Shown piece by piece: positions 6,952 to 7,723 of a stretch of 10,537 nucleotides of DNA (position 1 is its first letter; every line of letters starts with the position of its first letter). The DNA is from a virus (lineage: Duplodnaviria; Heunggongvirae; Uroviricota; Caudoviricetes). Below the pieces are notes generated by a model, which did not search any database, was not told the DNA's origin, and saw only the letters and a list, made by a program, of their open reading frames with translations. Location: IMG/VR virus record IMGVR_UViG_2671180608_000012; one strand, given 5' to 3'. Position numbers and translations under genes: made by a program.

Positions 6952-7238
6952 CGTTTTGTGATAATATTGGTGGCCTTTAAGTTGCTGGGGTCACCGTCTT
7001 TTAATCGTAGCTGGTGGATTGAATTCCAGATATCAAAATGATACAGCACTGCAAACCTCAAAGCGTCAATCTTTAAATCTGTCACACCATCGTAAAAGAA
7101 ATAACCCCTCCCTTCTTTCTTTGGTCTAATCCGGTAAACTTCCCCGTGAGTATCCTTCATAAGATGACCTTCACGAGAAATGCTGTAACGCTTTAACAGG
7201 TAATCTTTGTATCTCTTTTCACCGTGATATTCTTTCAT
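6948..7238 (-). CDS. Hypothetical protein (96 aa); weak NUMOD4/HNH-like pattern
   Basis: ATG at 7236-7238 with GGAGG RBS; overlaps the upstream stop as TAATG. Pattern YSISREGHL...GRGYFFY...RFAVLYHF loosely resembles the NUMOD4-like N-terminus of small phage HNH endonucleases; the HNH core is degenerate at best. Confidence 0.45.
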   Translation of the reverse strand: MKEYHGEKRYKDYLLKRYSISREGHLMKDTHGEVYRIRPKKEGRGYFFYDGVTDLKIDALRFAVLYHFDIWNSIHQLRLKDGDPSNLKATNIITKR

Positions 7239-7612
7239 TACTTAATTCCTCCACCGGCAAAATACATCTTCGGTTTAATTTTTTGCTTCTTGTCATCCTG
7301 AGTTTGTTTCTTTTTCGGTGAAAGATAATAATCATCTTCACTGTCATCGAATGGGTCTAAACCCGATACTTTGTTCTTTTGTCTTGCAAGCTCGAATCTC
7401 TTTTTCTTCTCTGCCCTCTTAATGGCTTTTTCACGTTCATCCTCTTCATCATCGAAGGGGTCCAACTCATCATCAGTGGCGGGGCACTGTGTGTTTTTAT
7501 GGTCACTATCAACACTCACATCAGTGATTTCTCTGTCTTGTTTAGAAGTCTTTTTAGAGCTTACTTCAAGGTCAGATTCATTCATAGAGAGAAAATCATT
7601 TAATTCATCCAA
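7238..7612 (-). CDS. Highly charged acidic protein with two LDPFDD motifs (124 aa); start uncertain
   Basis: ORF-track start at 7610-7612 is TTG; the first in-frame ATG is at 7583-7585. Contains DDELDPFDDEEDE and GLDPFDDSEDD separated by a K/R-rich helix. The frame stays open upstream to a stop at 7715-7717 without a canonical start. Confidence 0.45.
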   Translation of the reverse strand: MDELNDFLSMNESDLEVSSKKTSKQDREITDVSVDSDHKNTQCPATDDELDPFDDEEDEREKAIKRAEKKKRFELARQKNKVSGLDPFDDSEDDYYLSPKKKQTQDDKKQKIKPKMYFAGGGIK

Positions 7613-7663
7613 AGAAAGAAAGTCATCTTCTTTAATATCATCATTAAGTCCAGTCTCTTTATT

Positions 7664-7711
7664 CTTATCTGTAATATTATTATCTAATGTTTTATCTAAT
7701 AACTTATCTAA
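7664..7711. repeat. Four direct repeats TTATCT(A/G)(A/T)A at 12-15 bp spacing in an AT-rich stretch
   Basis: Copies begin at 7664, 7680, 7692 and 7704. Lies between the palindromic iteron array and the acidic protein gene. Confidence 0.5.
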
Positions 7712-7723
7712 ACTCTAACACGG

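Follow-up and report, generated by a model that had tools for sequence, protein, structure and literature searches.

The window examined here, a stretch of 10,537 nucleotides constituting the Caudoviricetes record IMGVR_UViG_2671180608_000012 of IMG/VR, contains at positions 7238-8127 two adjacent open reading frames (ORFs) with an array of repeats at their junction. The upstream ORF encodes a helix-turn-helix (HTH) protein of 129 aa and the downstream ORF a highly charged product of 124 aa, identical to SSON_1254 of Shigella sonnei Ss046, which is annotated as a hypothetical protein. As set out below, 7238-8127 (minus strand) is very probably one broken gene, coding for a replication initiator that binds iterons, with the origin inside its own coding sequence. 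All features of the broken gene and of the charged ORF lie on the minus strand of the window:

7738..8127, minus strand: 5' fragment of the probable initiator gene, an ORF of 129 aa in which the winged-helix DNA-binding domain (Pfam HTH_36) is complete
7724..7783, minus strand: iteron array, of which three copies are left in the window and four are present in intact genes
7765..7766, minus strand: site of a 23-nt deletion, at which one iteron unit, TACCAGTGACAAAATGTCATCAG, is missing relative to intact relatives in DNA alignments; its placement within the repeat is ambiguous
7718-7712, minus strand: insertion of 7 nt, TTAGAGT, which immediately precedes the first TTAGATAA as a near-tandem duplication and contains TAG 7717-7715
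7640..7716, minus strand: AT-rich stretch (22% GC versus 37% for the gene), encoding LDKLLDKTLDNNIIDK in intact genes
7238..7714, minus strand: orphaned 3' part of the probable initiator gene, 158 codons without upstream connection, including the 124-aa ORF
7465-7448, minus strand: first LDPFDD motif (LDPFDDEEDE), aa 50-55 of the 124-aa ORF
7360-7343, minus strand: second LDPFDD motif (LDPFDDSEDD), aa 85-90 of the 124-aa ORF

The charged ORF (7238..7612) starts with TTG, and its product contains 32 D and E and 25 K and R residues, amounting to 46% charged residues with a net charge of -7, an isoelectric point of 4.86 and a grand average of hydropathy of -1.46. The DNA of the two LDPFDD copies is 76% identical over 29 nt each, and the basic stretch EREKAIKRAEKKKRFELARQKNK between them is modelled as a helix by AlphaFold2 (AF2). 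Structure prediction, which the initial annotation of this locus had proposed, was carried out on the 158-aa frame with 21 homologues and gave a mean predicted local distance difference test score (pLDDT) of 57 and a predicted template modelling score (pTM) of 0.19, that is, coil of low confidence interrupted by two or three short helices, located only at LDELNDFLS and the basic stretch. In line with these results, the initial annotation had described two LDPFDD motifs around a basic helix in an extremely polar, probably disordered protein. It had also reported that short upstream repeats stay in frame up to a stop at 7715-7717, and indeed the frame is open from TAG 7717-7715 to 7238, its translation beginning SLDKLLDKTLDNN... 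and covering three copies of TTAGATAA (TTATCTAA on the plus strand) at 7711-7704, 7699-7692 and 7687-7680. These copies, the only three in the whole window, have an exact 12-nt (4-codon) period and are followed by CAGATAA at 7671-7665. TTG 7612 is merely the mechanical first start codon of this frame.

Overlooked in the initial annotation were three larger iterons just upstream, together with the 129-aa HTH ORF that ends within them, at TAG 7740-7738. The iterons, GACAAAATG(T/A)C, are located at 7781-7771, 7758-7748 and 7736-7726 with a spacing of 23 and 22 bp; the core is GACAAAATGAC in the first and GACAAAATGTC in the other two, and each unit is a dyad, GTGAC-AAAA-TGTCAC. Allowing up to three mismatches, the iteron 15-mer has five matches in the window, a number reached in none of 200 shuffles; a single site accounts for two of the five, being counted on both strands, and another match, at 315-329, is unrelated. 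Because the iteron DNA is translated in differing frames (SDKMS and VTKCH), the repeat is a feature of the DNA.

The relationship between the two ORFs is evident from their relatives. With the open frame as query, 224 proteins from E. coli and Shigella were retrieved, the longest of about 275 aa and many of them named 'helix-turn-helix domain-containing protein', which are continuous from the HTH domain via ...TSDKMSSVPVTKCHGGSDKMSPVLDKLLDKTLDNN... to the acidic tail. In a collection of complete E. coli genomes, 148 contain this DNA, 35 of them covering at least 80% of the query, and the best 30 of the 148 matches are all annotated as a single HTH gene. Nine intact genes from complete E. coli genomes were read (L001, L002 and L012-L018); one example of an intact allele is WP_064460425.1 of E. 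coli 2011C-4315. In all nine, a single ORF of 306-325 aa without internal stop spans this DNA, so that what had initially been taken for a stand-alone protein is encoded by the 3' half of one gene. Its start is the ATG equivalent to window position 8127; the initial annotation was right in suspecting a start further upstream, although the codon is canonical and not, as suggested there, a non-canonical one.

The product of the intact gene consists of a winged-helix N-domain (aa 1-115), a central part (codons 116-165) encoded by the iterons and AT-rich repeats, and a C-terminal tail of about 140 aa that is both acidic and basic and probably disordered for the most part. Four iterons start at nt 347, 370, 393 and 415, corresponding to codons 116-142, in all nine genes. 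In one of these (L001:9581-9661), the A-tract of the fourth iteron is flipped from AAAA to TTTT, with the arms unchanged. The shorter repeats encode LDK-type units at aa ~145-156 (LDKLLDKTLDNN) and are ordinary codons of the 306-325-aa gene, contrary to the initial suggestion that they might be purely regulatory.

Across the nine intact genes, the ratio of nonsynonymous to synonymous differences (pN/pS) is 0.02 for the N-domain, 1.5 for the iteron and AT-rich stretch and 0.44 for the tail. The ratio of 1.5 coincides with the lowest synonymous value of the regions (pS 0.031), pointing to constraint on the DNA instead of the peptide in the central stretch. The tail, with a pS of 0.30, is mosaic but has remained under selection.

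A further indication of function comes from the diversity of the family. Three N-domain types were found. Every type has a distinct set of iterons, always at one and the same place in the gene, and behind it a distinct set of AT-rich short repeats, while the C-terminal tail is common to all:

Type 1 iterons: GTGACAAAATGTCAC
Type 2 iterons: AACCAAAAATTGGTT, 23-nt period, four copies (L004, L009)
Type 3 iterons: ACTGAGTCAAGAAAGTT, 22-nt period, four to five copies (L008)

In types 2 and 3, equivalent AT-rich short repeats occupy the same place, namely AATATAAAGACAAA in three copies in L009 and ATAATAACA in two copies in L008, the latter read off the sequence itself. In the full-length protein, the N-domain matches PHROG replication-initiation, 'O-like' and DnaD-like families over residues 21-123 with E-values of 1.5e-10 to 1e-5. 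Among Pfam models HTH_36 is the best match, and DnaD_N scores weakly (E 0.002-0.05). A sequence search of PDB with the full-length homologue gave only spurious acetate-kinase and weak MarR matches.

Two indels separate the window from the intact gene, and as neither 23 nor 7 is a multiple of three, both shift the frame. The 23-nt deletion leads to the stop at TAG 7740-7738 after 129 codons, while the 7-nt insertion introduces TAG 7717-7715, behind which the tail lies in the third frame, and thereby cuts the tail off from ATG codons within the iterons. The insertion is absent from six aligned relatives, as established by DNA alignment for L001, L002, L007 and L019 and by intact reading frames for the rest. 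In alleles lacking it, the iteron ATGs head the whole tail ORF, for example in L007 (197 aa). In the window, on the other hand, the ATG in the first iteron opens only a 23-codon ORF, MTPLPVTKCHGGSDKMSPVLEFR (7704-7775, minus strand); ATG 7730 in the last iteron is preceded by GGGGG, with a free energy (dG) of -9.8 for the duplex with the anti-Shine-Dalgarno sequence. Programmed frameshifting was considered and rejected: two shifts would be needed, there is a TAG in each intermediate frame, and no slippery sequence was seen on reading the junction, an inspection that involved no formal test.

The break is real and widespread in S. sonnei, since exact fragments are found on more than 1000 S. sonnei contigs, including multi-megabase chromosomes. 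The exact 129-aa product occurs on at least 1000 contigs, among them S. sonnei contigs of up to 5.3 Mb, the exact 124-aa product on 281 and an exact 115-aa version starting with ATG on 772. Moreover, window positions 4403-7662 are 100% identical to an S. sonnei contig. The number of iterons varies in whole units, with four in the nine complete E. coli genes and three, with the frame broken, in S. sonnei and in Escherichia sp. MOD1-EC7003 (L007:9938-9996). The latter has the 23-nt loss without the insertion, resulting in overlapping ORFs of 127 and 197 aa. One E. coli allele (L019:290-345) carries two iterons, is 45 nt shorter and keeps the frame. The design therefore appears fragile: a unit of 22-23 bp is not a multiple of three, so that slippage by one iteron breaks the gene, while loss of two units (45 nt) does not.

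No Shine-Dalgarno match precedes either possible start of the orphaned tail, TTG 7612 or ATG 7585, where the anti-Shine-Dalgarno duplex dG is -2.3 and -3.1, respectively (25 nt upstream), compared with -7.0 at ATG 8127 and -9.3 at the next gene. Likewise, a sigma-70 scan of 6900-8500 found no promoter-like site before TTG 7612 or ATG 7585. The sole match in that interval is located upstream of ATG 8127:

8358..8386, minus strand: sigma-70-like promoter match (one found versus 5.8 expected by chance, and as such not evidence by itself)

Taken together, SSON_1254 most likely represents the remnant of a pseudogene and is not translated. The annotation in more than 1000 S. sonnei assemblies can be corrected accordingly, with SSON_1254 and the neighbouring 129-aa 'HTH protein' being two pieces of one dead gene.

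The tail itself belongs to a small family. Its relatives form 13 clusters among 1.84 billion representative proteins, pointing to a narrow, putative recruitment-type module. In each of the four near-full-length relatives that were read, the tail is joined to a winged helix of the initiator type; the rest are short fragments. Invariant across the three types are STDDE, the helix residues A..N, L-x-x-F-[DN]-D, DD[FY], P[KR]xK and a terminal (Y/F)xGG. The second LDPFDD is an instance of the family-wide L-x-x-F-[DN]-D, in which L and F are invariant in all three types, and is followed by DD[FY]..P[KR]xK and then by K(I/V)K(P/V)(K/R)..(Y/F)xGG, giving the basic end ...KIKPKMYFAGGG. The first LDPFDD is allele-specific, with LPDVD at this place in other members, and for this reason the LDPFDD 'duplication' is not a family feature. 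In a model of a full-length homologue, residues after 105 mostly have a pLDDT below 50.

The 124-aa ORF has no match in Pfam, PHROGs or NCBIfam. A scan of IMG/VR with a tail profile returned nothing, and a scan of genome contigs, with search patterns specific to type 1, returned one locus only. A literature search on LDPFDD, LDDFDD, MDPFDD, SSON_1254 and yecE satellites yielded nothing relevant. The C-terminal tip of single-stranded DNA-binding protein (SSB) reads MDFDDDIPF. Likeness of LDDFDDxDDDF to this tip was noted as a lead only, as the motif is internal here and lacks the terminal carboxylate.

On the pattern of lambda O and pSK41 Rep, dimers of the N-domain would load onto the iterons, the adjacent AT-rich repeats would melt, and the tail may recruit a helicase, helicase loader or primase of the host or of a helper phage. 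The AT-rich stretch at 7640..7716 is proposed as the DNA-unwinding element, and the TTATCTAA repeats within it would in all probability be origin DNA that is also coding sequence. DnaA boxes were considered for these repeats and rejected by inspection, because TTATCTAA(T/C) differs from TTATNCACA at three positions. No GATC sites are present in 7200-8200. The adjoining gene (8491-9153, minus strand) encodes an N6-adenine methyltransferase of the Dam type (PF05869) that continues into a fused HTH_7 tail of the resolvase type. In S. sonnei, loss of one 23-nt iteron unit combined with the 7-nt insertion at the first TTAGATAA repeat gave rise to the broken gene.

Several points weigh against a dead initiator gene. 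Neither RepA_N nor Phage_rep_O is matched in Pfam, neither annotation nor searches show a helicase or loader gene in the surrounding island, and the recruitment role suggested for the tail derives purely from analogy to PLE RepA, lambda O and pSK41 Rep. In addition, the window tail compared with its closest alleles has a pN/pS of about 0.8, which is only mildly relaxed and is based on few substitutions, and low-level translation of the 124-aa or 115-aa ORF is compatible with the lack of a Shine-Dalgarno match. The tail could still be made in S. sonnei, from TTG 7612 or ATG 7585, as a small acidic protein with a function of its own, such as titrating the partner of the initiator tail, mimicking DNA or counteracting restriction. 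Its 124 codons are intact and annotated as SSON_1254 in many assemblies, the composition is acidic and disordered, and the pN/pS just mentioned is below 1. However, neither start has a Shine-Dalgarno match or promoter-like site, the frame is bounded by a stop from a recent 7-nt insertion, and the near-full-length relatives that were read carry the tail fused to a winged-helix domain. Database proteins of 166-197 aa starting with MSPVLDK might pass for natural separate tail genes, yet the one contig checked (L003, source of a 182-aa protein) ends 49 nt before the gene, in the iterons, and a 140-aa S. sonnei 'partial' likewise begins at a contig end. As regards DNA mimicry or anti-restriction, the hypothesis raised by the initial annotation, the tail matches no anti-restriction, anti-defence or other family in Pfam, PHROGs and NCBIfam, and no folded, DNA-shaped model was obtained; profile searches instead led to a known kind of family, and by the refuting condition named in the initial annotation itself the hypothesis fails. 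We regard a separately functional tail as improbable.

Only slightly less doubtful is the view that the HTH protein is a transcriptional regulator, such as an island repressor, with the palindromic repeats serving as its operators and the tail as a regulatory or effector-binding region. HTH models of the MarR, GntR and Crp types give weak scores with the N-domain, many of its fold matches are MarR/ArsR regulators, and palindromic sites are typical of operators. We consider this view unlikely. Finally, the split might be a sequencing or assembly artefact, with a collapsed repeat hiding a gene that is really intact. Short-read assemblies do break at the iteron repeats. Nevertheless, the exact fragment counts given above include chromosomes of 4.99-5.3 Mb and the Ss046 reference, the 23-nt deletion is independently present in L007, and a 7-nt insertion is atypical of repeat collapse, making an artefact extremely improbable. 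A broken initiator gene with an internal origin is the interpretation retained in the following.

The gene is part of an island of about 11 kb, which is inserted in yecE (DUF72) in L001, L002 and L008 and between rutG (rut operon) and wrbA in L009:

L001:1134-11033, L002:754-10985, L008:6635-18246 and L009:7432-17931: island relatives
Window 13-9153: S. sonnei version of the island

Besides the initiator, the islands carry a large serine recombinase, a Dit-like tail protein, a tape-measure protein, about eight small ORFs without assigned function, and either a Dam-like methylase or a small resolvase. Capsid, terminase and helicase genes are absent from them. The serine recombinases measure 507-547 aa in L001, L002, L008 and L009, and the recombinase end of the island falls outside the window. 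When 6900-8200 was compared by blastn ('distant' mode) with collections of phages and plasmids, nothing was found, and Rfam gave no match on the whole window. The gene directly downstream of the initiator is syntenic in every relative examined and occupies the position that the helicase loader gene P has after lambda O:

6948..7238, minus strand: 96-aa gene without Pfam or PHROG match, whose ATG overlaps the initiator stop (TAATG) and which has a strong Shine-Dalgarno sequence, GGAGG, within the last initiator codons

Decay of the island in the window extends beyond the initiator gene, in keeping with the broken state of the latter. An IS3-family insertion sequence (IS) at 3135-4403 (orfA 4032-4334, orfB 3178-3996) is 99.7-99.8% identical to copies in Stx-converting phages, and its end truncates a 203-aa ORF (4386-4997) with homologues of 233-242 aa. 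The IS flanks, 28-3122 and 4396-5833, are non-identical copies of the same island segment, with 75% identity between 2626-3120 and 5137-5642 and with paralogues of 236 and 203 aa; two alleles or copies of the island seem to have been joined at the IS. Runs of N are found at 3123-3134, 9382-9408 and 9832-9874. The last of these lies between 81-nt direct repeats of 96% identity (9751-9831 and 9875-9955) inside a small serine-recombinase ORF (9805-10479), the sequence of which is therefore unreliable there.

The gene appears to belong to an undescribed Escherichia/Shigella island family. Tentatively, and with the odds somewhat against it, these islands could be PLE-like phage satellites that replicate from an origin in a distant RepA_N-like initiator gene, the tail (LxxFDD ... 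KPKMYFAGGG) being a new short-motif module that captures a helicase or primase of the helper phage or host. As the iteron period is not a multiple of three, addition or loss of one iteron inactivates the initiator, which would then immobilise the island, as apparently in S. sonnei. That the island family may be an unrecognised satellite is the only part of these results beyond routine interest.

The combination of features found here can be compared with four known systems. ArdA and Ocr, anti-restriction proteins that mimic DNA, each occur as a separate folded protein with the acidic residues set along a DNA-like helix. The mechanical 124-aa ORF resembles them in its small size and strongly acidic composition, but it is the tail of a larger protein and lacks a start of its own, a folded model and a match to such a family.

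A second system is RepA of the PLE phage satellites of Vibrio cholerae (PMC7145576, PMC8263062). There, too, the chromosomal island is that of a Gram-negative host, a large serine recombinase is present, and the initiator comes without helicase and primase. Alleles in both systems are mosaic through recombination, with a modular N-domain and origin. In contrast, the PLE origin is non-coding and not located inside repA, and PLE RepA is a recognised RepA_N member.

Among the lambdoid phages, the N-domain co-varies with the iterons, the C-terminal part being common, and the C-terminal domain of lambda O is folded. In the lambda O gene, which has 299 codons, four dyad-symmetric iterons spaced by 20-24 bp occupy codons 117-145, and the DNA immediately downstream is AT-rich. 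Very similarly, the iterons described here are found at codons 116-142 of 306-325 and are followed by AT-rich repeats, giving an iteron array and AT-rich region within an initiator gene together with co-variation of N-domain and iterons. PHROG families described as 'replication initiation O-like' are matched as well (E 1e-8). On the other hand, BLASTP detects no similarity in sequence to lambda O (E 1.4), and Phage_rep_O (PF04492), for which lambda O itself scores 5.7e-36, is not matched. Furthermore, the 96-aa gene follows in place of a P-like helicase loader, and the tail, unlike the C-terminal domain of lambda O, is not confidently modelled.

The last system is Rep of the Staphylococcus aureus plasmid pSK41, a protein of 319 aa of which the N-terminal domain (1-120) binds four boxes central in rep, the central part is merely what the origin encodes, as a linker, and the genus-specific C-terminal domain binds DnaG (PMC5703833). 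Iterons of RepA_N plasmids are inverted repeats converging on an A-tract (PMC7145576), a definition that GTGAC-AAAA-TGTCAC and AACCA-AAAAT-TGGTT both fit. The origin repeats of the nine intact genes, too, are central in the coding sequence (codons 116-142) and encode a linker. The RepA_N model PF06970, however, is not matched at E-values of up to 1 (hmmscan of Pfam with the window fragment and full-length types 1, 2 and 3). Compared with pSK41 Rep, moreover, the host is an island on a Gram-negative chromosome and not a Gram-positive plasmid, and the tail is of low model confidence, rich in short motifs and without detectable similarity to any known C-terminal domain. In layout, the agreement with these systems extends to every point. 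The probable initiator is ordinary in kind and new as a family member, working like pSK41 Rep and lambda O and being at most a distant relative of either. The design in which the origin lies inside the initiator gene, known from lambda and from Gram-positive RepA_N plasmids, would accordingly be present also in small chromosomal islands of Escherichia.

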